From the sequence record DRR378314_1792: a stretch of 64,000 bases of DNA; one strand, 5' to 3'. The position numbers and the translations under genes are program-made. How positions within the stretch are numbered: the stretch's first letter is position 1; each line of letters opens with the position of its first letter. Of this stretch, positions 8,290-44,878 are shown one piece after another. The notes beneath the pieces are model-generated. The model was given only the letters and a program-made list of their open reading frames with translations. It made no database searches and was not told the DNA's origin.

Positions 8290-9123
8290 ATGAATTGGCG
8301 ATTATTGCAAATGGGATTAAAAACCCTTCTTAACATTCGAAAGCAGGGATTTTTTATCCCCTATCGATATGCAGATACACTCCCGCCTGCTGAGCAGCGT
8401 CAAACCTATCCAGCGCTTGTTCCGCTTTTCAAACAGCAGGAGCCGGAATTTACCGCCTTTCTGAAAACCATGAGCGGGTATCTGGATCGGTTTCAGGAAT
8501 TCGGATCTGCACCGCCGCCCTTTCCTCGCTGGGAACAGGACTGGTTTCCCCGGTTGGATGGTGCTGCGGCCTACACAATGGTTCGCCACAAAAAACCTGC
8601 CCGGATCATTGAGGTGGGTTCCGGCCATTCAACACGCTTCCTCATGCAGGCCGCAAAAGACGCAGATCTTCAAATTGACTTCACCGCCATAGATCCGGCA
8701 CCGCGGGCAGACATCAGCAAACTGCCTATTACCCTTTACAATGACATCGTCCAGAATATCGAGATTTCCCTCTTCCAAAATCTGCAGGCCGGTGACATTC
8801 TGTTTATCGATAGCAGCCATATCGCCATGCCGGGAACCGATGTGGACTTCCTGTTTCTCAATATCCTGCCCCTGCTACCAGCGGGTGTCCTCATCCATAT
8901 TCACGACATTTGCCTGCCTTATAATTACCCGGAAAGCTGGGAATGGCGTGGTTATAATGAACAGCAAATGGTCGCCCCTTTGTTGGCGGGCGGATACAAG
9001 CTCCTCTTTGCAAGTCACTACGCAGCCCGAAACTTGACAGAATTGCTGACAGAAACAAGTATCGCGTCACTGCCCATTAGTTCCAATGCGAAAGAGACCA
9101 GCATTTGGCTTGAGAAACAATAA
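8290..9123 (+). CDS. Class I SAM-dependent methyltransferase (Methyltransf_24-like)
   Basis: IIEVGSGHST motif I, AIDP, LFIDSSH, GVLIHIHD; likely start ATG 8290. Confidence 0.88.
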   Translation: MNWRLLQMGLKTLLNIRKQGFFIPYRYADTLPPAEQRQTYPALVPLFKQQEPEFTAFLKTMSGYLDRFQEFGSAPPPFPRWEQDWFPRLDGAAAYTMVRHKKPARIIEVGSGHSTRFLMQAAKDADLQIDFTAIDPAPRADISKLPITLYNDIVQNIEISLFQNLQAGDILFIDSSHIAMPGTDVDFLFLNILPLLPAGVLIHIHDICLPYNYPESWEWRGYNEQQMVAPLLAGGYKLLFASHYAARNLTELLTETSIASLPISSNAKETSIWLEKQ

Positions 9124-9182
9124 TTTAGCCGGACCAACAACTTGTGAATGGATGTTTTGTGCCAATCCTGCATATTAGATGA

Positions 9183-10532
9183 ATGAGTAAGCTCAACAGG
9201 TTTAAAATACTGGGAGACAAGACTGCGGGAAAATTGCCCGCACGCGTCTTGAAAACCATTCAGCAACAACAGGATAACTCCGAAATCCTGATCGCTTGCG
9301 TACAGCTTCTGCTCGTTGTGCTTTTTGGCTCACTGTATATTTTCAGCCCAAAAACATTTTCACAAGACGCCATGTTTGCGCCTGTTCCCTTCGCGCTGAT
9401 CGGATATTTGATTTTCTCGCTAATCCGGCTTGTCTGGGCAGTTCACTGGCGGCTTCCGGGTTGGGCACTGGCCTTATCTGTCATTGCCGATATGACGTTA
9501 TTGATGTTTCTGATCTGGAGCTTTCATATTCAATATATCCAGCCACCGGCCTTTTACCTGAAAGCACCAACCCTTTTATACGCCTTTATCTTTATTGCTC
9601 TGCGTGCGCTCCGGTTTGATATGCGCTATGTGCTTCTGGCCGGATTAAGCGCAGCAATCGGATGGTTTTCACTTGTCGCCTATGCGGTCTATCATGGCGA
9701 CGGGATGGCCACGATTACCCGCGACTATGTGCTTTATACCATGTCCCATAAAATCCTGCTGGGCGCAGAATTTGACAAGATTATCAGCATCATAACGGTC
9801 ACAATGATCCTCGCCCTTGTCATTGTCCGCGCCCGGCGTCTGTTAATCAATTCAGTCAGCCAAACCACAGCAGCTGAGGATCTTTCGCGATTTTTCAGCC
9901 CGGAAGTTGCCGCAAAAATCACAAACTCTGAAAACTGGATCGAGCCTGGTACCGGTCAAAACAGAAATGCGGCTATTCTCCACTGCGATCTGGAAGGTTT
10001 TACCCGCCTTTCCATTGAAAAACCCGCTAATGAAGTCATCAGCCTGCTGGCAGAATATCAATCGCGGATGGTTCCGATCATTCAAAAACACGGTGGAACC
10101 ATCGATAAGTTCCTGGGAGATGGTATCCTGGCGACCTTCGGTGCAGTGCTGGAAAACGAAACATATGCCCGCGACTGCCTGGAGGCGATTGAGGAATTAA
10201 AAGAGGAGACAGAAACCTGGCAGGTTGAGCGAGCGGCGCAAGGCTTGCCCGAGCAGCGAATTCGCTTCACGGCGGCTTCAGGCCCGATCCTGTTTGGTGC
10301 TGTTGGTGATAAAAGCCGGCTGGAATATACAGTTATTGGAGAGCCGGTCAATTTAGCGGCCAAACTTGATAAGCATGCCAAGGATGAAAACACCACGATC
10401 CTTGTCACCGAGGATTGCCTGAGCACCGCAAAATCTCAAGGATATGAGCCCCGGTTCACGCCGAATTCCCGCCCGGACCGGCATGTCGGTGGGGTCACGG
10501 GCCTTGTAAATCTGGTAACCTTCGAAGCCTGA
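9183..10532 (+). CDS. Membrane-bound class III adenylate cyclase
   Basis: ~6 N-terminal TM helices; AILHCDLEGFT, IDKFLGDG, RLEYTVIGEPVNLAAKL catalytic motifs. Confidence 0.92.
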   Translation: MSKLNRFKILGDKTAGKLPARVLKTIQQQQDNSEILIACVQLLLVVLFGSLYIFSPKTFSQDAMFAPVPFALIGYLIFSLIRLVWAVHWRLPGWALALSVIADMTLLMFLIWSFHIQYIQPPAFYLKAPTLLYAFIFIALRALRFDMRYVLLAGLSAAIGWFSLVAYAVYHGDGMATITRDYVLYTMSHKILLGAEFDKIISIITVTMILALVIVRARRLLINSVSQTTAAEDLSRFFSPEVAAKITNSENWIEPGTGQNRNAAILHCDLEGFTRLSIEKPANEVISLLAEYQSRMVPIIQKHGGTIDKFLGDGILATFGAVLENETYARDCLEAIEELKEETETWQVERAAQGLPEQRIRFTAASGPILFGAVGDKSRLEYTVIGEPVNLAAKLDKHAKDENTTILVTEDCLSTAKSQGYEPRFTPNSRPDRHVGGVTGLVNLVTFEA

Positions 10533-10540
10533 ACGCGGTC

Positions 10541-11725
10541 CTACTTATAGGGGTCCGCCGCGTCCCTGAGGCCATCACCCAGGAAGTTAAACGCCAGAAC
10601 AACAATAATAACAGGAACAACCGGATACATAAGCCAAGGGGTTGTCGCCACGGCATTAATATTCGTGGTCTCATTCAGCAACACCCCCCATGAGGTAATC
10701 GGTGGCCGCAAACCAAGCCCCAAAAAGGACAGTGCCGTCTCCCCAAGGATCATACTGGGAACGGCCAGACTGGCACTCGCGATCAAGTGAGACGCAAAAG
10801 AAGGGAGAAGATGTCGCCCAATAACCCGGCTTGGGCTCGCCCCCATCAACTGGGCTGCCGTTGTGAAATCCTCCTCTCGAAGAGAGAGGAATTTCGATCG
10901 AACCGCCCTTGCAAGCCCCGGCCAATCCAATAAACCCAGAATGACCGATAGACCGAAAAACACCCAAATGGGCGACCAGGTCACCGGTAATGCCGCCGAC
11001 AGCGCAAGCCACAACGGTAGCTGCGGCAAGGATTTCAAAAGCTCAATGGTTCGCTGGATGATGTTATCAATCCATCCGCCGTAATAACCGGATATCCCAC
11101 CTAACACAATTCCCAGTGTGAAACTGATGATAATACCGATCAGCCCGATCGTCAGGGAAATACGCGTCCCATATATAATCCGCGAGAAAATATCTCGACC
11201 TAACCGGTCAGTACCCAGCCAGAAAAAAGTCGCCCGGCGTTGATCATCAGCGCAAATCAGATGCGTATCGGCGTCGATCAGTCCCCACATCTTGTATTCA
11301 TCGCCGCCACAGAAATAGCGAAGGGTATAAATCCGGCTTTTATCAACGCGATATTCCCGTTGCAATGTCTCCAGATTCAATTTCTGCCGATATCCATAGA
11401 CAAACGGTGCCCGAAGCTCCCCTTCATGGAAAATATGAACGGATTGGGGCGGTGCAAAGATATTGCGCGTATTTCGGCTGTGCAGCTCATAAGGCGCCAG
11501 GAACTCAGCAAAGAGCGTAGAGAGATAAAACAGCAACAGAATGATACCGCTAATCACCGCAAGACGATGTCGGCAGAATTTCCACCACATCATCTTCCAC
11601 TGAGAAGCCATGTAGTATTTTTCCTGCTCCGGTGACAGTTTCTCAACGGAAAGTGGATCAAACGGCTCTTTGGAATGCCAGTGTTCTAAGCGGCCGTCCC
11701 GGCCATTATTAAACGACTCGCTCAT
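10541..11725 (-). CDS. Opp/Dpp-type ABC transporter permease (OppC-like)
   Basis: LGTDRLGRDIFSR, EAA loop (FTTAAQLMGAS), AFNFLGDGLRDAADP. Confidence 0.95.
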   Translation of the reverse strand: MSESFNNGRDGRLEHWHSKEPFDPLSVEKLSPEQEKYYMASQWKMMWWKFCRHRLAVISGIILLLFYLSTLFAEFLAPYELHSRNTRNIFAPPQSVHIFHEGELRAPFVYGYRQKLNLETLQREYRVDKSRIYTLRYFCGGDEYKMWGLIDADTHLICADDQRRATFFWLGTDRLGRDIFSRIIYGTRISLTIGLIGIIISFTLGIVLGGISGYYGGWIDNIIQRTIELLKSLPQLPLWLALSAALPVTWSPIWVFFGLSVILGLLDWPGLARAVRSKFLSLREEDFTTAAQLMGASPSRVIGRHLLPSFASHLIASASLAVPSMILGETALSFLGLGLRPPITSWGVLLNETTNINAVATTPWLMYPVVPVIIVVLAFNFLGDGLRDAADPYK

Positions 11726-12750
11726 TTAGTGGCCCCCCCGGTCAACCGAATTCTGGGATCAAGGACAGCCAGCAGCAGATCCGAAATAAACACGCCGATG
11801 ACAGTCAATAGAGCCAGGAACATCAAGAAAGATCCCGCCAAATACTGATCCTGACTGCGCAGCGCGTCCAGCAGCATTGGGCCCGCTGTCGGCAAGCTCA
11901 GCACAGCGCTTACTATCACAGACCCTGAGATCACGTCTGGTAGCAGATTTCCAATATCGGCAATAAAGGGATTTAGGGACATCCGGATAGGATATTTAAC
12001 CAATGCCCTGATTTTCGGCACCCCCTTAGCCTTAGCCGTCGTTACATATTGCTTTTGCAATTCATCAAGAAGATTGGCACGCAGCCGCCGGATCATCGCC
12101 GCTGTCCCACTGGTGCCGATCACAATGACCGGAATAATCATGTGATCCAGGACGGACAAAGCCTTATCGACACTCCATGGCTGATCCAGGTATTGTTCGT
12201 CCATCAATCCGCCGATGGACAGGCCGAAATAATAGTTGGCATAATAGAGCAACACCATGGCGAGCAGAAAGTTAGGCGTCGCCAGGCCCAGATATCCGAT
12301 CAGGGTAAATCCGTAATCTCCAATAGAATATTGTCGGGTTGCCGAATATACACCGATCGGAAACGCCACGATATATATGAATATGATGGTCGAAAAATTG
12401 ACCACGAAAGTCAGGAACATTCGATCGCCAAGGACTTCGGTGACAGGCAGATCATAAGCAAAACTATGTCCCCAATCCCCCTGCAGCAAACCTGAAAACC
12501 CATCGGGTCCCGGCCAAAAGCCCATCCAGATGGCATATTGTTCTATTAACGGTTTATCCAGCGAATATTGCTCCCGGAGGAACGTAATTTTGGCGGCCGC
12601 CGTTGCACTTTCCCCTTGCGCCTTCAATTCCTGAAGCTGGTTGGAAAGATAGTCGCCTGGCGGCAGCTGAATGATAATAAACGTCAAGATACTAACCACC
12701 AAAAGAGTGGGTATCATGATGAGCAGTCTCTGGATAAAGTAACTGAACAT
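11722..12750 (-). CDS. Opp/Dpp-type ABC transporter permease (OppB-like)
   Basis: GDWGHS, QYVTTAKAKG, DLLLAVLDPRIR. Confidence 0.95.
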   Translation of the reverse strand: MFSYFIQRLLIMIPTLLVVSILTFIIIQLPPGDYLSNQLQELKAQGESATAAAKITFLREQYSLDKPLIEQYAIWMGFWPGPDGFSGLLQGDWGHSFAYDLPVTEVLGDRMFLTFVVNFSTIIFIYIVAFPIGVYSATRQYSIGDYGFTLIGYLGLATPNFLLAMVLLYYANYYFGLSIGGLMDEQYLDQPWSVDKALSVLDHMIIPVIVIGTSGTAAMIRRLRANLLDELQKQYVTTAKAKGVPKIRALVKYPIRMSLNPFIADIGNLLPDVISGSVIVSAVLSLPTAGPMLLDALRSQDQYLAGSFLMFLALLTVIGVFISDLLLAVLDPRIRLTGGATK

Positions 12751-12765
12751 GCCTGTTAGATCCCC

Positions 12766-14664
12766 CTAGCCATCGGCCTTGAACCAGAACAGGTCTGGAT
12801 GGTACATACCAAAATGCGCGCCGGGGTCCCAATTAAAGATCGCCTTCTCGGGCACGTTCTGAAGCGTATCCATAACGACGATTGGGTGCAAAATCCCGCT
12901 GACCACCCCAATGGTAAATTGCTGATCGGCATGTATTGCCAGCATCTCTTTCCAGATACGGGTTCGCTCCGCGTCTGTCTTGGAAACCCGCCACTCCGTG
13001 TAAAGCTCATATAGGCGCTCTACCTCTGGCATATCGACAGGTTCACCGGATTTCCCTTTGGTTTCGTAATATTGACCCCATTTAGGCCACTGATACCCAA
13101 CTTGTGTGGTAGGGGCCAGCAAGGCTGGACTTGCACTGGGTGTCGCCACCCCATTTTCAAATCCAGACCACACTGAAATCAACGTCTCACCCGCGAAAAT
13201 TCGATTTCGAAAAATCGCTCTCTGAGAGGGTTTGGTATAAAGAGCGATCCCCACTTCTTTCCAGCTATCGCGGATCAATTCCAGCACATCGGTCTGTTCA
13301 GTGCTTTCACCTGCTGTTTCCACAATGATGGATAAAGGCGTGCCATCCTCCATTAACCGAATGCCATTATCATCCCGCTCCGTGAAACCGATTTCATCCA
13401 ACAGTGCGTTCGCCTTGTCAAAATCCAGATATGCCCACTCTTTCTGGAAGCGTTCTTCATACAGCTCGCTTTGCGTCTGAACCGTATTGTTCCCTTCTTT
13501 GGCCAACCCAAAAAACAGCACATCATTAACTTCCGCCCGGTCAATGGCGAGGGACAAGGCCCGGCGGAACCGGACATCCCGGATAAGCTTACGCCATTTA
13601 GGATCCACCACATTCAGATTAGGATACAGCACAAAGTGGGAGCCCCGTACAGTCGGCCACAACAACGTTTTATATTGTGATCGTTTTTCATTAGCCTTCA
13701 AGAAGGTCGCATCCTGCAACTTCAGGGCACGCGCCTGCAGGTCCACATCCCCCGAAGCGGCCTTGGCTGAAATCAATTTCGGCTCCGAAACAGAGAGAAT
13801 GACCCGGTCAATATAAGGCAGTTGGCGCCCGGCTTGATCTACCCGATGGAAATAGGGGTTTCGCTCTCCGACAAAGCGATTTGCCGGGGCCGAGGTCGTG
13901 TTCCGCCAGGGCTGCAGTGTGGGGAGATCCGGATTATCAAATTTATAAAGATTATCCAGCCGGTTATGTTGTGATGCCCAGGCCTTGAACTTGATCTTCT
14001 GGATCTTGTTCATCTTGGACTTATCCACATACCGATCATGGTAAGGCTTCAGATAGTGAGCTGGCCGATAGATCAATAAGGGTGCAGCGCTTGCAAGCAG
14101 GCTCAGAAAATCCGGATTGGGGCTGGACCATTCATACCGGACGGTCGTTGCATCGGGAAAAGAGACTTTCGGCGCTTCGCCATTCACTAAAAGGGTTGCT
14201 GGCGGACCCGTCGGCGACAGTTTTGAGTTATTCGCCACATCCTCCCACCAATATCTGAAATCCTCAGAGGTAAAAGGCGCGCCATCAGACCAGCGGTGAT
14301 TTTTGCGAAGCTTGAAGGTGAAAATCCGGTTTTCCTCAACTTCAAAACTCTCTGCAATATCCGGGACGATGCGCAAATCCGGCGTATAGGATACCAAACG
14401 GGCGTACCCATAGACGAACATCAGTTTTACATCTGCAGCATTACCGATCAGGCTATTCAAAGTCCCCCCATATTGCCCCAGCATCTGATCTTCGAAAAAG
14501 GGGAGGACCCTGGGCGTTTCCGGGAGCCGGTCTTGAACAGATGGCAAATCACCCGACTGAACTGCGGCGGCAAAATAAGGAACTTCCGGGATTTCATTGG
14601 CCAAAGATGGTTGGCTAAATCCCGAAAAACAGAATAAAAGTAGCAGGCAGATTAGGTTCTTCAT
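12766..14664 (-). CDS. Family 5 ABC substrate-binding protein
   Basis: Signal peptide; GDLPSVQDRLPETP, FKLRKNHRWSDGAPFTSED, RNPYF, FRRALSLAIDR. Confidence 0.93.
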   Translation of the reverse strand: MKNLICLLLLFCFSGFSQPSLANEIPEVPYFAAAVQSGDLPSVQDRLPETPRVLPFFEDQMLGQYGGTLNSLIGNAADVKLMFVYGYARLVSYTPDLRIVPDIAESFEVEENRIFTFKLRKNHRWSDGAPFTSEDFRYWWEDVANNSKLSPTGPPATLLVNGEAPKVSFPDATTVRYEWSSPNPDFLSLLASAAPLLIYRPAHYLKPYHDRYVDKSKMNKIQKIKFKAWASQHNRLDNLYKFDNPDLPTLQPWRNTTSAPANRFVGERNPYFHRVDQAGRQLPYIDRVILSVSEPKLISAKAASGDVDLQARALKLQDATFLKANEKRSQYKTLLWPTVRGSHFVLYPNLNVVDPKWRKLIRDVRFRRALSLAIDRAEVNDVLFFGLAKEGNNTVQTQSELYEERFQKEWAYLDFDKANALLDEIGFTERDDNGIRLMEDGTPLSIIVETAGESTEQTDVLELIRDSWKEVGIALYTKPSQRAIFRNRIFAGETLISVWSGFENGVATPSASPALLAPTTQVGYQWPKWGQYYETKGKSGEPVDMPEVERLYELYTEWRVSKTDAERTRIWKEMLAIHADQQFTIGVVSGILHPIVVMDTLQNVPEKAIFNWDPGAHFGMYHPDLFWFKADG

Positions 14665-16553
14665 GCTCTCAATTCCTCAATCGTTGTCCCTTCATGCACA
14701 CGGACAAAATGCCCGCTTCCCATATCAAGCATGAGGGGAGCTGCATCTTCACTGATTGTAAAGGGAGCTTCCCATGCCGCCGGATTGGATGCTTTTTCAG
14801 AAACCAAATGATCAAAATCGAGCCGATGCTCCGGATTGGGTTCAGGAACAGCAGCCAACAACCGTTTTGTATAAGGATGGATCGGATTTTTAAAAAGAAC
14901 ATCCTTTGGTGCCGTTTCAACCAAACGTCCCTGGCACATCACCGCAATACGATCAGCAATATAGTCCACAACTGCAAGATTATGGGAAATGAACAGATAT
15001 GTCAGGCCCAGCTCTTTTTGCAGATCTTTGAGCAAATTCAGTATTTGCGCCTGAATGGAAACATCAAGAGCCGAAACAGGTTCATCACAAATCAACAGAT
15101 CCGGTTTCAAGGCGAGGGCCCGTGCAATACCGATCCGTTGGCGCTGTCCCCCGGAAAAAGAATGGGGGTATCGGCGCAGGAACCGAACATCCAAGCCAAC
15201 CAGTTCCATCAATTCCTTAACAGTATCTTCCCGCTCTTTTTGCGTTCCAATCTTATGGATCACCAACGGCTCGGAAATAATATCGAAAACTGTCATGCGC
15301 GGATTTAAAGAGGAAAAGGGGTCCTGGAAAATGAACTGGACCTTGCTTCGATAATCAAAAAGCTGGGCCTGGTTCATATTCAGGACATTCAAATCCTGCC
15401 CCCGGTCATTATAGACCACCTCCCCGGAGGTCGCGCTAAGCGCCCTCAGGATCACTTTTGAAAGCGTTGTTTTTCCGCAGCCCGACTCGCCAACAAGCCC
15501 AAGGCACTCACCCGGGTTAATGAAAAAACTAACATGATCTACAGCCCGAATTGAACCACCGGGCTTATTACCAATTATAGTGGTTTTGCGGGTGTTAAAA
15601 TCTTTTGTCAGGTTTTTCACCGACAGGATAGGCTGACTTTCTGTACCCGCCATATCCCTGGGGTTGGCCTGCGCCAGAAACTTACTATCTGAATTACGGG
15701 TAATTTCACGGATCGGGGTCAACCGCTCCCCCTCCTGCATATCAAAGCGGGGAACTGCTTTGAGAAGCGCTTTCAGATAGGGATGGCTGGGGTCACGAAA
15801 AATATCTTCAAGCGTGCCCTGCTCCATGATTTTTCCGTGATACATGACGACAACTTCGTCGGCCATGCTGGCCACAACACCCAGATCATGGGTGATGAGC
15901 AAGATCGCCATTTGCAGCTTTTCCTGCAATTTTTGCATTAAATCCAGTATTTGCGCCTGGATGGTTACATCCAGCGCAGTTGTTGGCTCATCCGCGATCA
16001 ACAAAGCTGGATTGCAGATCATCGCCATGGCGATCATCGCCCGTTGACGCAACCCACCTGAAAGCTCAAACGGGTAGGTATTCACTGCGGCCTCAGGATC
16101 TGGAAATCCAACCAGACGCAGCATGTCGATTGTCAGCTCCCGCCCTTCTTCTTTTGTTTTCTTCTGGTGCAGATGAAGCGCTTCTGAGATTTGATTCCCG
16201 ATGGTATGCAAGGGGGACAGGGACGTCATCGGTTCCTGGAAAATAATGGTAATACGCCCACCGCGGATCTGCCGCATTTCCTTACTATCAGGCTTTAATC
16301 GGGCAATATCATAAAAATTACCTGGCTTGTCTGGATCGAAGAACAGAATTTCCCCATCCGTAATATGGGCAGATCTAGGGAGGATCGACATAATCGCCTG
16401 ACTAATGACAGATTTTCCAGATCCACTTTCCCCAACCAGAGCGACAGTTTTCCCCATGGGAACCCGAAAACTGACCCCATCGACAGCTTTTACAGTGCCT
16501 TCTGCAACACGAAATTCGATCTTAAGATCTCGAACAAGCAACACGTTGGACAT
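14661..16553 (-). CDS. ABC ATP-binding protein with two fused NBDs (OppD/OppF-like)
   Basis: Two Walker A ([16 protein letters not shown]), two signatures ([16 protein letters not shown]), ADEPT/CDEPV. Confidence 0.95.
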
Positions 16554-16556
16554 CAG

Positions 16557-17078: not shown

Positions 17079-17095
17079 TCACGCTTCTTTATTGC

Positions 17096-17881: not shown

Positions 17882-19038
17882 GCGCGCTCAGACAGCCATT
17901 GTCGCAACAAAGCGACCGTACTATCAGTTCCCGATACATCAATCTTGGCAAAGGCGGGAGGTCCATTATAGGCAAGATCGACTTTTTCCGCCAAGCTGGC
18001 AGGAGTTAAGCCGCCTTCCTCGGCAATTTGCAGCACGCCTTTAGCAGCCAGTAATTCCGCTCTCAAGGTCTGTTCGGTCTCCAAACCGCCGGCATAGGGA
18101 ACAATGACCGCGCGGCATTTGGCATGTAGGACTTCCATCACCGTATTATATCCCCCTTGAGAAATTGACAACGTACAGTTCATCAATAAAGTCGTAAAAT
18201 CTTTACGTGCCCGCTCAATAATAACGCCCGGCCCGGCCAGTTGTTCAAGCTCCTCGAACAACTCGTCTTCAACAGTCACCCCGACCATGCAGCGCCATGT
18301 TTTTTCGGCAAGAGAGGTGAGCGGTTTTGCAAGTATGGCCGTCTTCAAAAGGTGATGGCCAACGGCCCCACCGCCGCTAGAGACAATAACTTCCTCAAAG
18401 CCCGGCGCATCCGCGCCACCTTTAAGACCCGTTCGGTCCACCACATAGCCGGTGTAGAAGATCTGGTCTTTGATCGCTTCAGTATGAGGGAAAGTCCGAT
18501 CCAGGGAAATCAGGTTTGGATCACCATGCACCAGCACCTTATCAAAATAGGTCCGAACCAGATCCAGCATTTCATCATTGCGGCCCGGTTTGGTCTGGGC
18601 GACAAGAATATCCCGCACCGATGATAAAATCAGTGGCGGCTTTGCTGCAGATTTCGCGGCCTCTAGCAGTGGTAAAAGCTCAAACCGCATCTGACGGCGA
18701 CCGAAGGGGAAAAGTTCTGTGATCAGTACGTCCGGTTTGACACGGTTATACACCTCCAAAAGCCGGGCAGCGCGCATTTCCCGCCAACTGTCATCAATGG
18801 CATTGCCGTCTTCATCCACAAGCTGTTTAAAAAAAAGATCTGTCGCGCGGGTTGCCGGCAGCTGGACAATTTCGGCGCCTTGCAAATCAATATTTATAGG
18901 ATGGCCGCCCGAGACAACCGTAACCTCAAATCCTGCACGCACAAGGTTTCGAGCCAATGTCACGGTTCGGCGTAAGTGGCCAATTCCCAGCAGATGCTGA
19001 ACATAAAAGAGAACTTTAGGTGCCGTGTTTTGTTCCAT
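17878..19038 (-). CDS. GT-B glycosyltransferase (GT28/GT1-like)
   Basis: YVQHLLGIGHL, ELFPFGR, SQGGYNTVME, EQTLRA; start ATG 19038 overlaps upstream stop (TAATG). Confidence 0.88.
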   Translation of the reverse strand: MEQNTAPKVLFYVQHLLGIGHLRRTVTLARNLVRAGFEVTVVSGGHPINIDLQGAEIVQLPATRATDLFFKQLVDEDGNAIDDSWREMRAARLLEVYNRVKPDVLITELFPFGRRQMRFELLPLLEAAKSAAKPPLILSSVRDILVAQTKPGRNDEMLDLVRTYFDKVLVHGDPNLISLDRTFPHTEAIKDQIFYTGYVVDRTGLKGGADAPGFEEVIVSSGGGAVGHHLLKTAILAKPLTSLAEKTWRCMVGVTVEDELFEELEQLAGPGVIIERARKDFTTLLMNCTLSISQGGYNTVMEVLHAKCRAVIVPYAGGLETEQTLRAELLAAKGVLQIAEEGGLTPASLAEKVDLAYNGPPAFAKIDVSGTDSTVALLRQWLSERA

Positions 19039-19619
19039 TATGGCTTTTCCAATCGTATGTTTGGCCGTTCTGCTGTTGGCTGTCCATCTTTGCCAATGAA
19101 AAACAGATGGGCAGCTTCCCACTGATACGCAACCGGCAACTCGTTCTTCATATCCCAATTGTAAGCCAGTGACTGCATCGCCCTCATAACACCTTTATGT
19201 GTTACTGCGATAGTCGGCGACTTTAATTCGGTTAAAAAGGATAACAAGCGCTCTCTTACATGGCGGGGCGACTCCCCTTTCGGGGGTTTCATATCCAAAC
19301 CTAGGCTTTCATTCTGTATCATTTCGCCTCCGAAATGAGCGCGAAGGTCTTTTATCGTATGACCTTCCCAAAGACCGAAGTCCATCTCGATCAACCGATC
19401 GTCAAGGTCTATCTCCTTTGCCCCCAATAACTGGGCGGTCTGAACGGCGCGTTTCAGCGGACTACTAACCCAGTTATACTCCTGAAATTCCTGTGGAATC
19501 TGACATTTCTGAAGGTTTGAAACGCCCTTGGGACACAATGGAATGTCACGGCGCCCCTGCAATTTCTTGGCTAGGTTCCACTCCGTTTTACCATGCCGGA
19601 TCAACACTAATGGGATCAT
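19038..19619 (-). CDS. Histidine phosphatase (phosphoglycerate mutase superfamily)
   Basis: LIRHGKTEWN, SSPLKRA, EMDFGLWEG, VTHKG. Confidence 0.92.
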   Translation of the reverse strand: MIPLVLIRHGKTEWNLAKKLQGRRDIPLCPKGVSNLQKCQIPQEFQEYNWVSSPLKRAVQTAQLLGAKEIDLDDRLIEMDFGLWEGHTIKDLRAHFGGEMIQNESLGLDMKPPKGESPRHVRERLLSFLTELKSPTIAVTHKGVMRAMQSLAYNWDMKNELPVAYQWEAAHLFFIGKDGQPTAERPNIRLEKP

Positions 19620-20749
19620 TGGCCCAATCCCTGCAGATGGGTATTCAATAATACAGATGCCGCCTGTAGGCTGCGTTCTTTTTGCACAAAAAGGGTGGCT
19701 TGTTCAGACAAACGGTTCACTTCATCCGGGTTTTTCTGCAAGGACATAATCTGTTCCGCCATGGCTTTCATGTCCCCTTCAGCCACAAGGTATCCCGTAT
19801 GACCATCCTGAACCACATCCGGGACACCTCGAACACGCCCTGCAATCACAGGCGTTCCTGCCCACTCAGCTTCCAGCAAAGCCATTCCATACGCCTCCCC
19901 GCAAGCGGGCCAAACATATAAGTCTGCGCCTTCGTAAAGCGCTGCCAAATCCGCCCCATCGCGCCGACCCAGGTAGCAGACACGGTCTCCGTATGATTTG
20001 AAAAGGGTTTTGACCTTTGCTTCGCACTCTCCATCACCGACAATAATCAGTTTCCAGCCAGCAGGCGGCAGAAAGGACAGCATTTCAGCCAATTGTGTAT
20101 AGGAGTTCATCTTATCACCGGGACGCATCATGGCCACGGTCAAGAGTTTGAGATCCGGCGTATTGATATCTGCTGATGACAAGGCTGTCACAATATCCGA
20201 AGAAACCGTTTCATTCAGACTTTCTGCAGGTTTCATAAATGGTGGCATTTTCACCAGCTTATCGGCGTTCCAAACAAGATCCTTCAAACAATTGCCGTCC
20301 AGATCTGTCATATAAAACACCCGATCAGCGCCCCGAATAGCTTGCGCAGCAGCTTCATACCCCAACGCCCAGGCCCCATCGGCCTGCTTGGGAGCATGGC
20401 TGGCTTCTGCAACGACATAAGGAATACCAAGCGCCTTTGAAACCAAAGGGCCGATCCAGTCTGGCGCTTTATGGTAGACATGATACGTAAACCACAGATC
20501 CGGTTTTACCTTGTCAGGATCCGCGTTAAATTCATTGAGAATTCGAACGACCTCTGCGGCGGCTTGATCCCGAAGCTGACCTTGAAGTTCCAAGTCGCCC
20601 TTCTTGTCATAAGATCTGTGATCTGACGCCAGATACACTTCATGGCCCGCAAGGCTCAATGCTTCCATAAAGAGCCGGGCAACCCGTCGATCCCCAGAAG
20701 GAATCACATGAGTAGGGGCTTTCAAGGGTGCATAAAACGCAATTCTCAT
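19616..20749 (-). CDS. GT4-family glycosyltransferase
   Basis: MRIAFYAPLK start (ATGA overlap), SGDR, EAYGMALLE (EX7E). Confidence 0.9.
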   Translation of the reverse strand: MRIAFYAPLKAPTHVIPSGDRRVARLFMEALSLAGHEVYLASDHRSYDKKGDLELQGQLRDQAAAEVVRILNEFNADPDKVKPDLWFTYHVYHKAPDWIGPLVSKALGIPYVVAEASHAPKQADGAWALGYEAAAQAIRGADRVFYMTDLDGNCLKDLVWNADKLVKMPPFMKPAESLNETVSSDIVTALSSADINTPDLKLLTVAMMRPGDKMNSYTQLAEMLSFLPPAGWKLIIVGDGECEAKVKTLFKSYGDRVCYLGRRDGADLAALYEGADLYVWPACGEAYGMALLEAEWAGTPVIAGRVRGVPDVVQDGHTGYLVAEGDMKAMAEQIMSLQKNPDEVNRLSEQATLFVQKERSLQAASVLLNTHLQGLGQ

Positions 20750-21999
20750 GAGCTGACTTCTTTTGGGAATTTCTTGGAAAGCGTTGTAATCCATGTTTCC
20801 GCATTAAATTCAGACCTTAATTTGTCAAAACCCTTCTCACTCAGTCGGATCCGCAAATCAGGGTTCCTAATCAAACTTTCCAACGCCAAAGACAGTTCCT
20901 CCGGCGAGTTTTGCGAGACAAGTAAACCGGTTTGATTATCGATAATCAACTCTGGAATAGCAGACACGGAGGTTGCCACAATCGCCGCCTTTTGACTTTG
21001 TGCTTCCATCAAGACATTTGGCAAACCATCGCGATCTCCGTCATCTGCAATTCGGCTGGCCAGAACAAAAATATCTGCCGAATTCATTGCCGCTTTTACC
21101 TCGGCCTGTGATTGTGGCCCCATCCAGTGACAACGATCCGCATAGGCGGAGATGGCGGCTTGCCCCTTCAACCCCTCTAAAAGGGGTCCACCACCAATAT
21201 GCGTAAACTCCCAATTCAGATCCTTTGGCAATCGAGCCAAGGCCCCCAGAACATCATCATAGCCTTTTTTCTCAACCGCCCTGCCCACGGACAAAATCTG
21301 TACCGGTTTTTCCGCATCGGACCCGGTGTGCTGATGAGGTTCGCGCTGAGTATCTTCAAACCGGCTCAAATCCAGTCCATGATACAGCAGCTCGATCTTG
21401 GTCGGATCAGCTGCCATCTGCCGCAAATGATCCACGTTAAAAGCCGTGCAGGTAACCAGCCAACTGACGTCTGACAGTTTCTCCTGAATTTCCCAGTCGG
21501 GCGATGTGTAAATATCCTTTGCATGCGCAGAGCAGCTCCACGGCAGATCAAGGCAAAAAGCCGTATATCTGGCAACTGAAGCCGGCGTATGTAGAAAATG
21601 CGCATATATCCTATCACTATTTTCCGGAAACTCAGCAGCCAGCACCATGGCCTGCCCAAACCGGCGAAACCGGTTGCGGCTAAAGTCCCGAACCAAATCC
21701 CGACGCCAGGTTCGAAAGGCCTTTTTATACCCCAACAGCTTTCGCGTCCTCCACCAGCCTTTGAAAACCCGGATCGGTTCCTGATGCAGATATTCAGGCA
21801 GGTAAGTCACAGGGGCTTGCATTTCTTGATGTATGGGATGGGTTTTCTTATCCGTGGGAAAGCGCAACGAGATCAAGTGCAATTTATGGCCCAGCTTTTC
21901 CAGCGCCCGAAGCTCCTGGGCGATGAAGGTTTCTGACAATCGGGGATATCCCTTCAGAACCACTGTGATTACCGGACCCGTTTTCTCTTTCTGCTGCAT
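20746..21999 (-). CDS. GT4-family glycosyltransferase (WcaL-like)
   Basis: YPRLSETFI, SAHAKDIY, SVGRAVEKKG, DGLPNVLME; start 21999 or 22023. Confidence 0.9.
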   Translation of the reverse strand: MQQKEKTGPVITVVLKGYPRLSETFIAQELRALEKLGHKLHLISLRFPTDKKTHPIHQEMQAPVTYLPEYLHQEPIRVFKGWWRTRKLLGYKKAFRTWRRDLVRDFSRNRFRRFGQAMVLAAEFPENSDRIYAHFLHTPASVARYTAFCLDLPWSCSAHAKDIYTSPDWEIQEKLSDVSWLVTCTAFNVDHLRQMAADPTKIELLYHGLDLSRFEDTQREPHQHTGSDAEKPVQILSVGRAVEKKGYDDVLGALARLPKDLNWEFTHIGGGPLLEGLKGQAAISAYADRCHWMGPQSQAEVKAAMNSADIFVLASRIADDGDRDGLPNVLMEAQSQKAAIVATSVSAIPELIIDNQTGLLVSQNSPEELSLALESLIRNPDLRIRLSEKGFDKLRSEFNAETWITTLSKKFPKEVSS

Positions 22000-22218
22000 C
22001 AAAGTTTCGTTCCACAAGATCAAAAATTTGTAGTAGGGGGTGTATTTCCGAATTTCAACCTAACATTTAAAAAAAGGGGACGTGACATCTTTCCCCAAAT
22101 CCCTCAAAAAGGGTTTTCTAATAAAATTTGGTCCTTGCTTGCGTTATGAGAAATGTGAAAAAGTGGCGCGGGAGCAATAATTTGACATATGTCTGGGCGG
22201 CAAGGCAGGTCTCACTGC

Positions 22219-24870
22219 ATGGAACATAGTATTTACAAATACATTCTGCGCCATAGTAAAAAGCAGCAGATTATCCTATTACTTATGTCCATCGGATCTT
22301 TTCCGTTCCTATATTACTATCTTGAACTTCCCAAAATCATCATTGATCAGGCGATCCAGGCAAAAGATATCGTCTTTCCTGTTGAGTTTATGGGTATCGC
22401 CATTGATCAGCAGGAATTTCTCTATGTGACTGTCGGTATCTTTCTGGTACTGGTCATCATCAATCAGAGCTTTAAATACGCGATTAATGTCTATCAGGGC
22501 ATCACGGGGGAGCGTATGCTGCGCCGGATGCGCTATGAACTTTATAGCCGTATTCTCCGCTTCCCACTGCCCATATTTCGAAAAAAGAGTTCTGGTGAAA
22601 TCATCCCGATGATCACCTCTGAAGTGGAACCCCTTGGTGGTTTTATCGGGGAGGCCTTTGTCTTACCGGTTTTTCAAGGCGGATATCTGCTGGTGATCAT
22701 GAGTTTTTTGCTCATTCAAAATGTGTATATGGCACTTGCTGCCATTGCCCTCTATCCCCTGCAGGCCTATTTCATTCCGAAAATGCAGCGGATCGTAAAC
22801 CAGCTTGGAAAAGAGAGAGTTCAGCGGGTTCGGGTCCTTTCCGATAAAATCGGTGAGACAGTGGCCGGTATCCAGGAAATTCATATTCACGATACATCCA
22901 ATCTGCTACGAGCTGACTTCACCAACCAACTGGGCCGTATATATTTTATCCGCTACCGGATCTATTTGCTGAAGTTCATTATCAAGTTCCTGAATAACTT
23001 TATTCAACAACTGGGGCCATTCTTTTTCTACGCCATCGGCGGCACCATGGTCATTGCTGGCACCCTGGAAATTGGCACATTGGTGGCGGCCATTACAGCT
23101 CATAAAGAAATGGCGGCTCCGTGGAAAGAGCTACTTGCTTATTATCAACGACGTGAAGACGCCCGGATCAAATATCAACAGGTCGTGGAACAGTTTGAAC
23201 CCGCCGGCATCCGAGATGACAAGTACCAGATGGACGAGCCGGATCCCATGCCACACCTGTCTGGAGAACTGGTCGGCTCAAACCTGATCTTGTCCGATGA
23301 CACGGGCTCCGCCCAACTTGAAGGGCTGAATATTCGCGGAGATTTGAAACAGAAACTGGCGATTGTGGGTGCTGCTGGCTCTGGCCGTGACGCATTGACC
23401 AAAATTATAGCTCGCTTGATTGATCCTGATCGCGGAAAACTTAGTGTTGGAACAATCGACCTGCTGACTGCCCCTCAATCTCTGACCGGACGGCGCATCT
23501 CCTATCTGGGGCAAAGCGGATATGTGTTTAATAGCTCAATCGGGGATAATCTGTTTTTCGGGCTGAAGCATCGCCCCCTACGGGAAGTCGACCTGGAGGA
23601 TGAGGACGAGGTTGATTTTCTGAAAAGAGATCGACCGGAAATCGAAATTACCTCGAACAGCCCCTTTTCTGTCCGGGCGGACTGGATCGATTTTGACAGT
23701 GCTGGTGTTTCAACCCTCGATGAACTGGATGCCCGGGCCATCGATATTTTGCAGATGGTAGAGCTGGGCGATGATGTTTATCAATTTGGCCTCAGAAGTA
23801 CGCTCGATCCAAAAGAAGACAGCGAAGTTGCATCCCTGATCCTGACAGCGCGGCGGCGGTTTTTCGAAAAACTGGAAGCTGACCCGGCTCTTAAAAACCT
23901 GGTTGAGGCGTTCGAGGAAGATCAATACAACACTAACGCCACTCTGGGTGAAAACCTGCTCTTTGGAACTCCAGTAGGCAACAGCTTTGATATGGAGCGG
24001 CTTGCTGAAAATTCCTACGTGCAGAAGGTGATTGACGAAGCCAACCTGACCACGGCTTTCCTCAACATGGGCTATCAGGTTGCAACCTTAATGGTTGAAC
24101 TTTTCGCCGATTTGCCCCCTGAACACGAATTTTTCCAGCAATATGGCTTTATTTCATCAGAAGAGCTTCCGGACTATCAGGCCATTCTGTCTCGGGTGAA
24201 CCCCGACAACCTGGATCAACTGCGCGAGGAAGACCGGCTTCGGTTTATGTCTCTTCCCTTCAAAGTCATTCCATCCCGCCATCGTCTAGGCGTGATTACC
24301 GACGAAATTCAAGACAAAATTGTCCTCGCCCGTAAACAGTTCATCGATCACCTGCCTGAACATCTCCACGGCAAAATCGAATTTTTCGATTCAGACGCCT
24401 ACAACACAGCCGCCAATATTCAGGATAATATCCTGTTTGGCAAAATTGCCTATGGCTACGCCCAGGCCAATGAAAAAATTGGCGCCCTTCTGGCAGAAGT
24501 CGTGGCTGAAATGGATCTGAAACGGTCTATCATTAAAGTTGGTCTGAATTTTAACGTCGGTTCAGGCGGTGCACGGCTCAGTGAAAATCAACGCCAGAAA
24601 CTGTGTATTGCCCGGGCCATTATCAAAAAACCGGATCTGTTGGTCCTGAACCAGGCAACAGCATCTCTGGACTCCAGATCTCAACAACGCATTCTGGAAA
24701 ATATTCTATCGGAATTTGAAGACCGAGCCGTAATCTGGTCTCTGGACAAGCCTGAGATGGCCTATCTATTTGACCAGGTTCATTACATTGCAGGCGGCCT
24801 GATCATGGATACAGGTTCTTTCGAAGATCTGAAAAGCCGAAATGAACAATTCAAATCGCTGATCAGCTAG
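22219..24870 (+). CDS. Fused ABC exporter-type permease plus degenerate, expanded ATPase domain
   Basis: N-terminal ABC_membrane domain (~6 TM); Walker A-like GAAGSGRD, signature-like LSENQRQK, Walker B-like LLVLNQAT; start 22219 or 22189. Confidence 0.88.
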   Translation: MEHSIYKYILRHSKKQQIILLLMSIGSFPFLYYYLELPKIIIDQAIQAKDIVFPVEFMGIAIDQQEFLYVTVGIFLVLVIINQSFKYAINVYQGITGERMLRRMRYELYSRILRFPLPIFRKKSSGEIIPMITSEVEPLGGFIGEAFVLPVFQGGYLLVIMSFLLIQNVYMALAAIALYPLQAYFIPKMQRIVNQLGKERVQRVRVLSDKIGETVAGIQEIHIHDTSNLLRADFTNQLGRIYFIRYRIYLLKFIIKFLNNFIQQLGPFFFYAIGGTMVIAGTLEIGTLVAAITAHKEMAAPWKELLAYYQRREDARIKYQQVVEQFEPAGIRDDKYQMDEPDPMPHLSGELVGSNLILSDDTGSAQLEGLNIRGDLKQKLAIVGAAGSGRDALTKIIARLIDPDRGKLSVGTIDLLTAPQSLTGRRISYLGQSGYVFNSSIGDNLFFGLKHRPLREVDLEDEDEVDFLKRDRPEIEITSNSPFSVRADWIDFDSAGVSTLDELDARAIDILQMVELGDDVYQFGLRSTLDPKEDSEVASLILTARRRFFEKLEADPALKNLVEAFEEDQYNTNATLGENLLFGTPVGNSFDMERLAENSYVQKVIDEANLTTAFLNMGYQVATLMVELFADLPPEHEFFQQYGFISSEELPDYQAILSRVNPDNLDQLREEDRLRFMSLPFKVIPSRHRLGVITDEIQDKIVLARKQFIDHLPEHLHGKIEFFDSDAYNTAANIQDNILFGKIAYGYAQANEKIGALLAEVVAEMDLKRSIIKVGLNFNVGSGGARLSENQRQKLCIARAIIKKPDLLVLNQATASLDSRSQQRILENILSEFEDRAVIWSLDKPEMAYLFDQVHYIAGGLIMDTGSFEDLKSRNEQFKSLIS

Positions 24871-24896
24871 CGCAAGAACAAGAAGGAGCAGTCATC

Positions 24897-25364
24897 ATGA
24901 CTTTACGAGAAGAAGTCGAAACACTCAGGCAAATTCCACTCTTTGCAAAAGTTGACCCATCCAAAATCAAGTTACTCGCCTTTACTGCCGAACGGCTAAC
25001 CTTTCAGCCGGGGGATCTCCTATGCAAGCAAGGTGAAATGGGTGATGCGGCCTATGTCATCATTAATGGTAAAGCTGACGTGGTGATCGACACACCGACA
25101 GGCCCGATCACGGTTGCAACCATGCATAAAAACGACGTGGTCGGAGAAATTGCCATTTTGATCAATATTCCCCGAACCGCAACGATTAAAGCTGCCTCTG
25201 AATTGACAACATTGCGGATCACGAAAGATCTGTTCCTGCGGACCATTACAGAATTCCCGGAAATGTCGATTGAAATGATGCGGGTCCTTGCAGATCGCCT
25301 GGTAAAAACCACCGAAGAACTCCAAAAAGCCAAAGAAAGCCTTCGAAAAGAAACTGGTCAGTGA
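24897..25364 (+). CDS. Stand-alone cyclic nucleotide-binding domain protein
   Basis: IPLF, QGEMGD, phosphate-binding cassette VGEIAILINIPRTATIKA; no HTH; AGGAG RBS. Confidence 0.92.
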   Translation: MTLREEVETLRQIPLFAKVDPSKIKLLAFTAERLTFQPGDLLCKQGEMGDAAYVIINGKADVVIDTPTGPITVATMHKNDVVGEIAILINIPRTATIKAASELTTLRITKDLFLRTITEFPEMSIEMMRVLADRLVKTTEELQKAKESLRKETGQ

Positions 25365-26720: not shown

Positions 26721-26759
26721 GAAAAAAAGTTCCGATAACGGAATAAAGGGGGATATATT

Positions 26760-44874: not shown

Positions 44875-44878
44875 TTTT

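Follow-up and report, generated by a model that had tools for sequence, protein, structure and literature searches.

The stretch of DNA analysed here, 64,000 nucleotides (nt) from sequence record DRR378314_1792 and referred to below as the window, contains at positions 8290-25364 a block of 14 genes in which glycosyltransferases (GTs) and glycan-modifying enzymes are encoded together with an Opp-type importer, a protein resembling ATP-binding cassette (ABC) exporters, a nucleotidyl cyclase and a protein with a domain for binding cyclic nucleoside monophosphates (cNMPs). Genes were called from the list of open reading frames (ORFs), and families were assigned by Pfam and NCBIfam profile scans of the window proteins. 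An earlier note, made from the sequence alone, had described 13 contiguous genes in three units; its genes and coordinates were confirmed by the ORFs and both profile scans, and the count was corrected to 14 (2 + 10 + 2). The first unit, on the plus strand, consists of the methyltransferase gene followed by the cyclase gene and is convergent with a ten-gene operon on the minus strand, which reads in the order GT4a-GT4b-phosphatase-GT28-like GT-261-aa protein-173-aa protein-OppDF-SBP-OppB-OppC (aa, amino acids; SBP, solute-binding protein). The third unit is divergent from the operon and carries, on the plus strand, the gene of the ABC-exporter-like protein (ABC-like protein) and, after a gap of 26 nt, that of the cNMP-binding protein. 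The features are as follows.

8290..9123, plus strand: methyltransferase dependent on S-adenosylmethionine (SAM), Methyltransf_24 (Pfam PF13578, E 1.8e-10)
9183..10532, plus strand: membrane class III nucleotidyl cyclase, 449 aa (Pfam Guanylate_cyc, 2.6e-12)
10541..11725, minus strand: OppC-type ABC importer permease (BPD_transp_1 9.3e-29, OppC_N 5.5e-16)
11722..12750, minus strand: OppB-type ABC importer permease (BPD_transp_1 8.9e-28, BPD_transp_1_N)
12766..14664, minus strand: periplasmic family 5 SBP, 632 aa (SBP_bac_5 8.9e-59)
14661..16553, minus strand: fused double ATPase of OppD/F type (two ABC_tran, oligo_HPY)
16557..17078, minus strand: small membrane protein, 173 aa, hydrophobic in its N-terminal part (no Pfam family)
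17096..17881, minus strand: CE4-fold (NodB-homology) deacetylase-like enzyme, 261 aa (motifs, AlphaFold2 (AF2) model, Foldseek)
17878..19038, minus strand: GT-B glycosyltransferase with a GT28 C-terminal-like domain, 386 aa (Glyco_tran_28_C 3e-8)
19038..19619, minus strand: histidine phosphatase (branch 1), 193 aa (His_Phos_1 1.2e-35)
19616..20794, minus strand: GT4 glycosyltransferase GT4b (Glycos_transf_1 1e-26; probable start Met16 at 20749)
20746..22023, minus strand: GT4 glycosyltransferase GT4a (Glycos_transf_1 4.8e-30, Glyco_transf_4; probable start ATG 22002)
22024..22188, no strand: divergent intergenic region between the GT operon and the ABC-like gene (sequence)
22189..24870, plus strand: type IV ABC-exporter-fold protein, 893 aa (ABC_membrane 1.3e-23, split ABC_tran; probable start Met11 at 22219)
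24897..25364, plus strand: stand-alone cNMP-binding domain protein, 155 aa (cNMP_binding 2.3e-17)

The ORF of the methyltransferase opens at TTG 8266, its likely start being ATG 8290, and the GT28-like GT begins at ATG 19038, not at TTG 19158; the start of GT4b was placed at Met16 because its homologues are 374-378 aa long. The operon is tightly packed. Five of its junctions overlap by 1 or 4 nt: by 4 nt, from the coordinates, at GT4b/phosphatase, GT28/261-aa protein, OppDF/SBP and OppB/OppC, and as TAATG at phosphatase/GT28. GT4a/GT4b (ATGA) becomes the sixth, provided that GT4b begins at Met16. The several stop/start overlaps described earlier are borne out. The G+C content is about 50% throughout the window and the surroundings are housekeeping genes (his genes, hslVU, mutS, glnD, murJ, trpS, fur, metK, nusA, infB). 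The tRNA and Rfam scans found no element in the window, and promoter- and terminator-like sites are not commoner than in shuffled sequence, the divergent intergenic region included. As the earlier note had stated, no Wzx/Wzy/Wza or nucleotide-sugar gene is present among the scanned window ORFs of at least 150 aa; likewise, no initiating polyprenyl-phosphate transferase, flippase/polymerase, Wzm/Wzt or outer-membrane export protein occurs among the block genes and the flanking ORFs of at least 150 aa.

The evidence that these genes belong together comes from other genomes. Relatives of the GT28-like protein number more than 7940, and the window protein is 88% identical to its counterpart in Sneathiella limimaris, which identifies the source of the window as a Sneathiella-like alphaproteobacterium. 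A search profile, made from an alignment of 17 GT28-like proteins (the window protein and 16 of the 120 relatives listed), was run on a one-genome-per-species collection, where at least 602 stretches matched, at least 587 of them encoding a relative, and the best 80 loci were analysed. Presence of each gene was established by tblastn with 17 window proteins, dropping matches with less than 50% query coverage, and not by ORF calls, on account of antisense shadow ORFs in high-GC loci. Most loci end at contig ends, and the counts use the 35 of the 80 that have both 10-kb flanks (full loci). On the alphaproteobacterial side the 80 loci come from Sneathiella, Kiloniella, Oceanibacterium, Rhodospirillales, Hyphomicrobiales, Minwuiaceae and Rickettsiales-labelled metagenome-assembled genomes (MAGs), and many come from Burkholderiales and Betaproteobacteria; the division into alpha and beta types follows the record titles, with two MAG loci labelled 'Enterobacteriaceae' placed with the beta type.

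GT4a, the GT28-like GT and OppDF are each found in all 35 full loci, GT4b, OppB and OppC each in 33, the histidine phosphatase in 31, and the CE4 protein, the SBP and the ABC-like protein each in 27; the cNMP-binding protein is found in 25 (26 without the coverage filter) and the 173-aa protein in 23. The Methyltransf_24 homologue accompanies 18 of the 35, and either Methyltransf_24 or Methyltransf_17 accompanies 24. An orthologue of the window-type cyclase is present in 17/35, and any cyclase-domain gene within 10 kb in 29/35 (alpha-type 20/26, beta-type 9/9), a count that adds three other cyclase families, by Pfam, seen beside the block. The order GT4a-GT4b-phosphatase-GT28-CE4-173aa-OppDF-SBP-OppB-OppC recurs and is largely kept across loci, with an extra GT28-like paralogue ahead of GT4a in many loci outside Sneathiella. 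Genes flanking the block in the window served as controls and were found in 0 (ECH), 6 (AMP-binding) and 7 (MFS) of the full loci. The block is thus more than a chance assembly, since distant genomes repeat its genes and their order but not the genes that flank it in the window. The earlier note had taken the genes for one conserved functional block and had named failure to co-occur elsewhere as the result that would speak against it; in the 35 full loci they do co-occur, and the claim stands. The block is conserved across many alpha- and betaproteobacteria, rhizobia included.

For rhizobia the evidence is found on plasmids and chromids, where tblastn detects the block in 274 records (143 Rhizobium, 80 Sinorhizobium, 9 Ensifer, 7 Azospirillum and others). 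On pRlvB of R. leguminosarum and pRL11 of R. johnstonii 3841 the order is a divergent nucleotide-sugar dehydrogenase gene, cyclase, OppDF, SBP, two permeases, a GT28-like paralogue, GT4a, GT28-like GT, an ABC-like protein of about 900 aa and the cNMP protein. The S. meliloti pSymB version adds a polysaccharide lyase and two methyltransferases, annotated in S. meliloti records as class I SAM and FkbM methyltransferases; in strain 1021 the counterpart lies at 838,365-840,796 by megablast, and pSymB 880-930 kb holds no counterpart of the block. In Azospirillum sp. B510 all genes run in one direction: Methyltransf_17, ABC-like protein, Opp genes, GTs, phosphatase, GT and a 'polysaccharide deacetylase family protein', as PGAP names the orthologue of the 261-aa protein. 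Rhizobial neighbourhoods of this kind had been mentioned in the earlier note, and correctly so: Rhizobium and Sinorhizobium chromids and plasmids carry the cyclase-Opp-GTs-ABC-like-cNMP set. Product names in the rhizobial and Azospirillum records are all generic. By gene order only, the R. johnstonii genes would correspond to pRL110056 (the dehydrogenase) and pRL110053-54 ('optAD'). The accessible part of one preprint reads pRL110056, which by order adjoins the Rhizobium block, as O-antigen-related (bioRxiv 10.1101/2020.05.07.082560). The gene is described as needed in nodules and for root colonisation, and transposon-sequencing studies, as far as their accessible text goes, report fitness effects for rhizobial genes that by order lie in or beside the block.

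Some peculiarities of the rhizobial loci may be recorded here. In S. meliloti ml66 (pSymB-type replicon, L082:16130-18837) the ABC-like gene is found by tblastn in two pieces that meet near 16530 and is absent from the gene table of the record; it may be frameshifted, or the table may be incomplete. Toxin-antitoxin pairs, probably plasmid-maintenance passengers, lie in or at the edge of the block in R. johnstonii pRL11 (RelE/ParE-type, L084:16619-17370) and in Azospirillum B510 (AbrB/Doc-type, L086:13990-14650). The glycan cluster regulated by Clr (cAMP) that is described in PMC5498481 was considered as the block and rejected, being a different cluster.

The main new result concerns the ABC-like protein and its cNMP-binding partner. 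The AF2 model of the ABC-like protein (pLDDT 82.9) has the type IV exporter fold, and Foldseek retrieves TmrAB, HlyB, PCAT1 and the cyclic-glucan transporter (PDB 7zo8) with E-values of 6e-19 to 1.6e-16 at 12-14% identity. The ABC_tran match is split between residues 382-476 and about 739-891 by an insertion of approximately 260 residues (about residues 470-745), which is located between the Q-loop region and the signature and is confidently modelled as mainly helical. The insertion gave no Pfam or Atlas family, the Atlas search returning unnamed clusters only; its own family comprises at least 2266 cluster representatives, all generically named. Within the insertion (window 23596-24423) a short segment of the helical subdomain of the nucleotide-binding domain (NBD) seems to be repeated three times in sequence and AF2 secondary structure; hhalign gives E 1.3e-4 to 2.6e-4 with a probability of 42-54%, and 2% for the third pair, faintly suggesting that the insertion may have arisen by repetition of that segment.

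The catalytic motifs of the NBD were compared in 36 ABC-like proteins (the window protein, 32 from the loci and three rhizobial ones, two of them partial). The Walker A Lys is kept in 10/36 and the Ser/Thr after it in 3/36, the window protein having Arg-Asp at these positions; the Walker B Asp is kept in 4/36 and the catalytic Glu in 14/36, with Asn-Gln in the window protein. The signature Ser-Gly-Gly is intact in none of the 36, its first Gly being kept in three and its second in five. The OppD/F ATPase of the same operon, unlike the ABC-like NBD, has canonical motifs. Judged by sequence, the NBD is catalytically degenerate across the family. The earlier label of ABC exporter did not survive this comparison, for the catalytic motifs of an ATP-driven exporter are missing across the whole family, which makes export through this protein by ATP hydrolysis doubtful.

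What this protein keeps is a partner. A same-strand cNMP gene begins no more than 400 nt downstream of the ABC-like gene in all 34 loci with room for it (35 loci have the ABC-like gene), and L063, L079 and Azospirillum B510 encode single fusion proteins of 1031, 1033 and 1047 aa, respectively, in which the cNMP domain follows the ABC-like part at the C-terminal end. Together with the cyclase domain in 29/35 full loci, this constancy agrees with the earlier claim that cyclase and cNMP-binding protein are part of the block. The cNMP protein consists of a cNMP_binding domain alone, in which the Gly-Glu and Arg-x-Ala-Thr of the phosphate-binding cassette are invariant; it has no helix-turn-helix, scores 35 bits against the CRP equivalog (cutoff 266) and is not a Crp/Fnr protein by this test. 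Lacking a DNA-binding domain, it has to exert its effect by way of another protein. Complex prediction pairs it with the ABC-like protein at ipSAE 0.65 (best of three controls, 0.00), a mark that 51 of 78 solved complexes attain, as against 2 of 108 mismatched pairs; a pass also occurs in 7 of 44 blind neighbouring gene pairs, so that the score is not proof. The runs agree in at least 94% of contacts, with a partner pLDDT of at least 81. The predicted contacts involve residues 567, 634, 637-638, 648, 652, 698-701 and 755-759 of the insertion, including the invariant E637, H698, R699, L700 and G756, and residues 1-3, 6 and 22-42 of the cNMP protein, including the invariant K25, L26 and F29. The cNMP protein is therefore predicted, on the strength of these models, to bind the insertion of the ABC-like protein.

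At the other end of the block the cyclase has a strongly conserved multi-pass N-terminal membrane domain followed by the catalytic domain (residues 261-422). The metal-binding D269 and D313 and the transition-state N390 are invariant in the alignment. K309, which we take to be the adenine-specifying position, is near-invariant, and the position that we presume to be the second specificity site varies between Glu, Asp and Pro.

As for the glycan-building enzymes, the GT28-like GT has a MurG-type C-terminal domain and, in the 17-sequence alignment, many invariant basic residues in its N-half; the search of PDB sequences was uninformative for it. GT4b is nearest in the PDB to BshA (2.8e-16), MshA (1.1e-12) and sucrose-phosphate synthase-type enzymes, all of which act on small acceptors, and GT4a to MshA, GlgM and PimB'. 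In NCBIfam GT4a is WcaL/EpsE-like and the phosphatase CobC-like, each below cutoff, and the PDB relatives of the latter are small PGM-family phosphatases. No GT or phosphatase match reaches the equivalog level (BshA 77 against a cutoff of 274, MshA 61 against 462, CobC 107 against 163). Both GT4 enzymes also give weak matches to the N-acetylglucosaminyl-phosphatidylglycerol synthase model (1.4e-7 and 2.8e-7), far below cutoff.

The 261-aa protein had been called a deacetylase on a weak Pfam match, and the label was upheld by fold and motifs. Polysacc_deac_1 does not match it, only DUF2334 appears below threshold (E 9.6e-4, 19.2 bits against a cutoff of 26), and the PDB sequence search was uninformative. 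Its AF2 model (pLDDT 94.2) retrieves with Foldseek almost exclusively CE4-type deacetylases and esterases among the top 50 (best 1.4e-10, TM 0.69), the closest structures being polysaccharide, peptidoglycan and chito-oligosaccharide deacetylases. In an alignment of the 24 normal-length members out of 38 in the family, an Asp cluster (D27-D29), His-x3-His (H76, H80), PPWN and His-His (H214, H215) are invariant; by analogy, D27-D29, H76, H80, H214 and H215 would form the CE4 metal/catalytic triad. The 173-aa protein may carry a bacterial PH-like domain, a lead that comes from its nearest named Atlas clusters, 47% of whose members have bPH_6; NCBIfam gives a weak STM3941 match (8.1e-5, below cutoff).

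The methyltransferase gave no PDB sequence relative. Its inclusion in the pathway, proposed earlier, is borne out by the way in which Methyltransf_24 and Methyltransf_17 accompany the block in different lineages; Methyltransf_24 of Sneathiella stands at the opposite block end from Methyltransf_17 in many other loci, a case of non-orthologous replacement of the methylation function. Methyltransf_17 genes beside the cNMP or ABC-like gene were seen in loci L013-L015, L019, L029, L030, L052, L064-L066, L068, L070 and L078, and at L087:5640-6224.

The transporter of the operon has two BPD_transp_1 permeases, one with an OppC N-terminal segment by Pfam, and a fused OppD/F with two canonical Walker A motifs and oligo_HPY. 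OppD/F is GsiA-like (9.3e-185, below the NCBIfam cutoff), and for permeases, SBP and ATPase alike every NCBIfam equivalog, the peptide-transport models included, stays below cutoff. The N-terminus of the SBP is signal-peptide-like. Its nearest PDB sequences are Thermotoga maritima 5IPW (9.3e-83), SPH1118 (7.8e-81) and the alpha-galactoside binder AgpA (1.8e-25), and SPH1118, according to the accessible part of its description, has pectin and unsaturated trigalacturonate as ligands and shows scarcely any response to peptide digests (PMC9314435). The earlier statement that family 5 SBPs can bind oligosaccharides therefore applies to the window protein, which is located in this oligosaccharide-binding branch. 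When the ligand residues of SPH1118 were mapped onto the window SBP and onto the 36 cluster SBPs, out of 44, that are 600-800 aa long, the stacking Trp was kept in 33/36, the Tyr/Phe in 36/36 and two arginines in 32/36 and 35/36; Arg57, Arg438, Arg496 and Asn53 are replaced. Because the stacking residues are kept and Arg57, Arg438 and Arg496 are not, a sugar-type pocket is likely and an oligogalacturonate ligand is not.

The computed results thus cover gene content and its conservation, the CE4 fold, the degenerate NBD, the sugar-type lineage of the SBP, and the link between the cNMP and ABC-like proteins by adjacency, fusion and predicted docking. We infer from them what the product is chemically, in which order the steps occur, which way the flux runs, which cNMP is involved and that it gates export. 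We tentatively propose, at somewhat less than even chances, that the module makes and modifies a small glycan or glycoside in the cytoplasm, that its release is under a local cNMP circuit and that the Opp-type importer retrieves it. Two GT4 and one to three GT28-like GT-B enzymes would assemble an oligosaccharide, probably on a phosphorylated acceptor, and the histidine phosphatase would then dephosphorylate it. The CE4 enzyme would deacylate one sugar, the group removed being most likely N-acetyl, and the SAM methyltransferase would methylate the product. The membrane class III cyclase would make a cNMP, and the cNMP protein would dock on the insertion of the degenerate NBD to gate either product release or the activity of the machine. 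Finally, the SBP-dependent importer would take back the product or an extracellular derivative of it.

Several findings weigh against this scheme. Residues required for ATP hydrolysis are missing from the ABC-like protein, so that the product may leave by some other path altogether; an exporter with a dead ATPase would be odd. Its docking with the cNMP protein passes a test that blind neighbouring pairs also pass at times, and 6 of the 35 full loci have no cyclase within 10 kb. In six full loci, L028, L040, L049 (Kiloniella), L064, L070 and L078 (Rhodospirillales MAGs), which represent perhaps two lineages, SBP and CE4 are both absent and OppDF-OppB-OppC is kept; the rhizobial versions have no phosphatase, CE4 or 173-aa protein. 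Hence neither 'deacetylated' nor 're-imported' describes a universal feature, as the parts concerned are lacking from the rhizobial versions or the six loci. GT4b resembles BshA and MshA in the C-terminal nucleotide-sugar half only, far below the NCBIfam cutoffs, the uronate-binding arginines of SPH1118 are lost from the SBP, and the dehydrogenase adjoining the Rhizobium block has been read as O-antigen-related. Of the interpretation in the earlier note, the conserved block, the SBP branch and the deacetylase were retained, and ATP-driven export through the ABC-like protein became doubtful. Deacetylation keeps its CE4 enzyme and re-import its SBP-dependent importer, both without universality, the direction of flux through the importer being part of the proposal. 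In the six loci without SBP and CE4, GT28-like paralogues number two or three (three in Kiloniella). That both genes are missing together gives a hint that the deacetylated form is what the SBP binds, or else that the Opp core can do without a dedicated SBP.

The main rival supposes a different flux, in which an oligosaccharide from outside the cell or from the periplasm enters through Opp, is remodelled by GTs, phosphatase and deacetylase and is then released or used, or in which OppBCDF is itself the exit route; the ABC-like/cNMP pair would then be a sensor or regulator and not a pore. OppDF (35/35) and OppB/C (33/35) match the GTs in constancy, against 27/35 for the ABC-like protein and likewise for the SBP; six loci keep the Opp core with no SBP gene in the block, and the NBD of the ABC-like protein is degenerate. 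Moreover, Sap PepT-type permeases and ATPases named 'putrescine export' are among the sub-threshold NCBIfam matches, so that export by this transporter type has a named precedent. However, the SBP, where present, has a signal peptide and a conserved pocket, the hallmark of uptake, the window block has no catabolic glycoside hydrolases or kinases, and 27/35 is a lower bound for the ABC-like protein because the beta-type gene often lies beyond the 10-kb flank. We regard this reading as unlikely, though a serious competitor. A second possibility is an envelope glycan, either membrane-bound or linked to a lipid (a glycolipid, a decoration of lipopolysaccharide/O-antigen type or a periplasmic glycan), assembled at the inner leaflet and flipped in an MsbA/PglK-like manner, the importer salvaging turnover fragments. 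The ABC-like fold is common to lipid and lipid-linked-oligosaccharide flippases and the cyclic-glucan transporter, and the MurG-type C-terminal domain and invariant basic residues of the GT28-like GT, the phosphatidylglycerol-type matches of the GT4 enzymes, the polysaccharide lyase of S. meliloti and the partly accessible account of pRL110056 in O-antigen, nodules and root colonisation point the same way. Yet the block has no polyprenyl-phosphate initiating transferase, ligase, Wzx/Wzy or Wzm/Wzt, a degenerate ATPase is unexpected for such a flippase, a small soluble phosphatase better suits a soluble phospho-acceptor, and pRL110053-56 map onto the block by gene order only; an envelope glycan is accordingly rather improbable.

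Could the product be a secreted 'public good', a small glycoside such as a chelator or signal that, once released, takes up cargo or builds up with cell density and is reimported through the family 5 SBP according to the logic of opine-type metallophores or Opp-dependent peptide signals? This would be a special case of the proposed release and retrieval. Biosynthesis genes, family 5 SBP importer and exporter-like protein in one block fit it, as do sub-threshold NCBIfam matches of permease, SBP and ATPase to the staphylopine Cnt importer; but these are no better than the matches to Opp, Nik, Dpp and Gsi models, all below cutoff, the block has no metal-related regulator or gene, and the nearest solved relatives of the SBP bind sugars, which leaves the idea with a small chance. 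It is very improbable indeed that cyclase and cNMP protein are a Pycsar-like anti-phage signalling pair that merely lies beside a glycan locus. PADLOC does match the cyclase to PycC models (best 2.5e-22) and the cNMP protein to the cNMP domain of Pycsar TIR effectors (8.7e-16), but the matches are limited to the shared cyclase and cNMP-binding domains, the two genes are about 14 kb apart at opposite block ends, and the cNMP protein, which carries neither a TIR nor a pore domain as effector, stays coupled to the ABC-like protein wherever there is room. The block, moreover, sits among housekeeping genes and is conserved with GT and Opp genes across orders.

In its most specific form the proposal is that a catalytically dead ABC scaffold uses its enlarged NBD as a landing pad for a cNMP-loaded cyclic-nucleotide-binding (CNB) protein, and that cAMP or cGMP, not cyclic di-GMP (c-di-GMP), thereby acts as a post-translational switch for the release of a previously unknown methylated amino-sugar glycan, secreted and retrieved by hundreds of alpha- and betaproteobacterial species including legume symbionts. 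Taken as a whole this version is doubtful and less probable than the general scheme. If true, it would define an unknown glycan of marine and plant-associated proteobacteria and provide a function for ABC-fold proteins that lost ATP hydrolysis; to our knowledge it would be the first case of a cNMP receptor acting directly on a transport-type protein of a glycan locus. The block occurs in at least 587 genome stretches and in 274 plasmid/chromid records, and the idea is directly testable in model rhizobia.

Each part of the block belongs to a known superfamily, and the closest systems in behaviour are the polysaccharide secretion machines gated by c-di-GMP and the loci that combine biosynthesis with retrieval. 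In the former (cellulose BcsA-PilZ, alginate Alg44, Pel PelD and poly-N-acetylglucosamine PgaCD) a messenger receptor sits on a membrane machine that releases a glycan. The block would share with them a receptor attached to such a machine, as proposed here, and it has synthesis and control genes in one locus; unlike them, its messenger would be a cNMP from a class III cyclase, its receptor is a CNB domain, its predicted target is a dead-ATPase protein of ABC-exporter fold instead of a GT2 synthase, and the block includes an SBP-dependent importer. With type IV ABC exporters (the cyclic beta-glucan transporter 7zo8, MsbA, PglK, HlyB, TmrAB) the ABC-like protein shares the overall transmembrane and NBD fold, but it differs in its 12-14% identity, degenerate Walker A, signature and Walker B, insertion of about 260 residues and obligatory cNMP-domain partner. 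The early steps of mycothiol and bacillithiol synthesis use a GT4 enzyme (MshA/BshA), then a phosphatase, then a deacetylase, and osmolytes are made by sugar-phosphate synthase/phosphatase pairs; MshB and BshB belong to another deacetylase family than CE4. The block resembles these pathways in having a GT4 beside a phosphatase and an N-deacetylase-type enzyme, with BshA and MshA as the nearest solved sequences of GT4b, and departs from them in that the match covers the C-terminal domain only, far below the equivalog cutoffs, the deacetylase has the CE4 fold, GTs number three or more and no cysteine ligase is present. Staphylopine Cnt and trehalose recycling by LpqY-SugABC are cases in which a small molecule is recovered by an SBP-dependent ABC importer linked to its synthesis. 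A dedicated importer of this kind is likewise encoded with the synthesis genes of the block; in contrast to these systems, the block has no equivalog-level Cnt match, the product class would be another, and the cNMP circuit and the degenerate ABC-fold protein are without counterpart there.

The SBP, similar over its full length to SPH1118 of Sphingomonas sp. A1 and to 5IPW (E about 1e-81), shares with them a size of about 620-630 aa, the stacking Trp, the Phe/Tyr and two arginines; it differs from SPH1118 in the replaced Arg57, Arg438, Arg496 and Asn53, and SPH1118, in the accessible part of the report, is not placed beside GT genes (PMC9314435). The msbA2 operon of S. meliloti (SMb21188-SMb21191) also comprises rhizobial pSymB genes for GTs and an ABC-exporter-type protein and is assigned to an unknown polysaccharide in the accessible portions of its descriptions (PMC3687685, PMC12239276). 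As a counterpart of the block it was rejected: the two are not homologous, the window proteins find no GT homology at pSymB 930-950 kb, tblastn matches of the ABC-like protein there are all below 60 bits, and the counterpart in strain 1021 lies at about 838 kb. In the literature, searched without most subscription journals or S. meliloti locus tags, no described counterpart was found for a locus that combines GT-B enzymes and a sugar importer of Opp type with a class III cyclase and a CNB protein predicted to dock on a degenerate ABC scaffold. The same search yielded no assigned product, in line with the earlier note, which knew of none, and the database annotations encountered were all generic.

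Some neighbours of the block in the window deserve mention. On the same strand after the cNMP gene (25407-28265), a gene for an MFS transporter, whose N-terminus is AmpG/acetyl-CoA-transporter-like (Acatn, 9.8e-16), is followed by an AMP-binding gene of acyl-CoA-synthetase type, with gaps of 42 and 39 nt. Both accompany the block mainly in Sneathiella, perhaps as a lineage-specific addition that supplies, for instance, another way out of the cell or a step of acylation. A 256-aa protein is encoded at 6645-7415, two genes ahead of the block; its C-terminal half gives a sub-threshold match to a receiver domain (29.0 bits against a cutoff of 30.2), and it was not met in the related loci, the 17 tblastn queries not including it. 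Further away, at 43079-46510, there is a cell-wall-related group unrelated to the block, composed of a Glucosaminidase-domain protein, an HpcH/HpaI aldolase, a classical Polysacc_deac_1 deacetylase and a D-Ala-D-Ala dipeptidase; a canonical CE4 gene is thus present elsewhere in the same genome.

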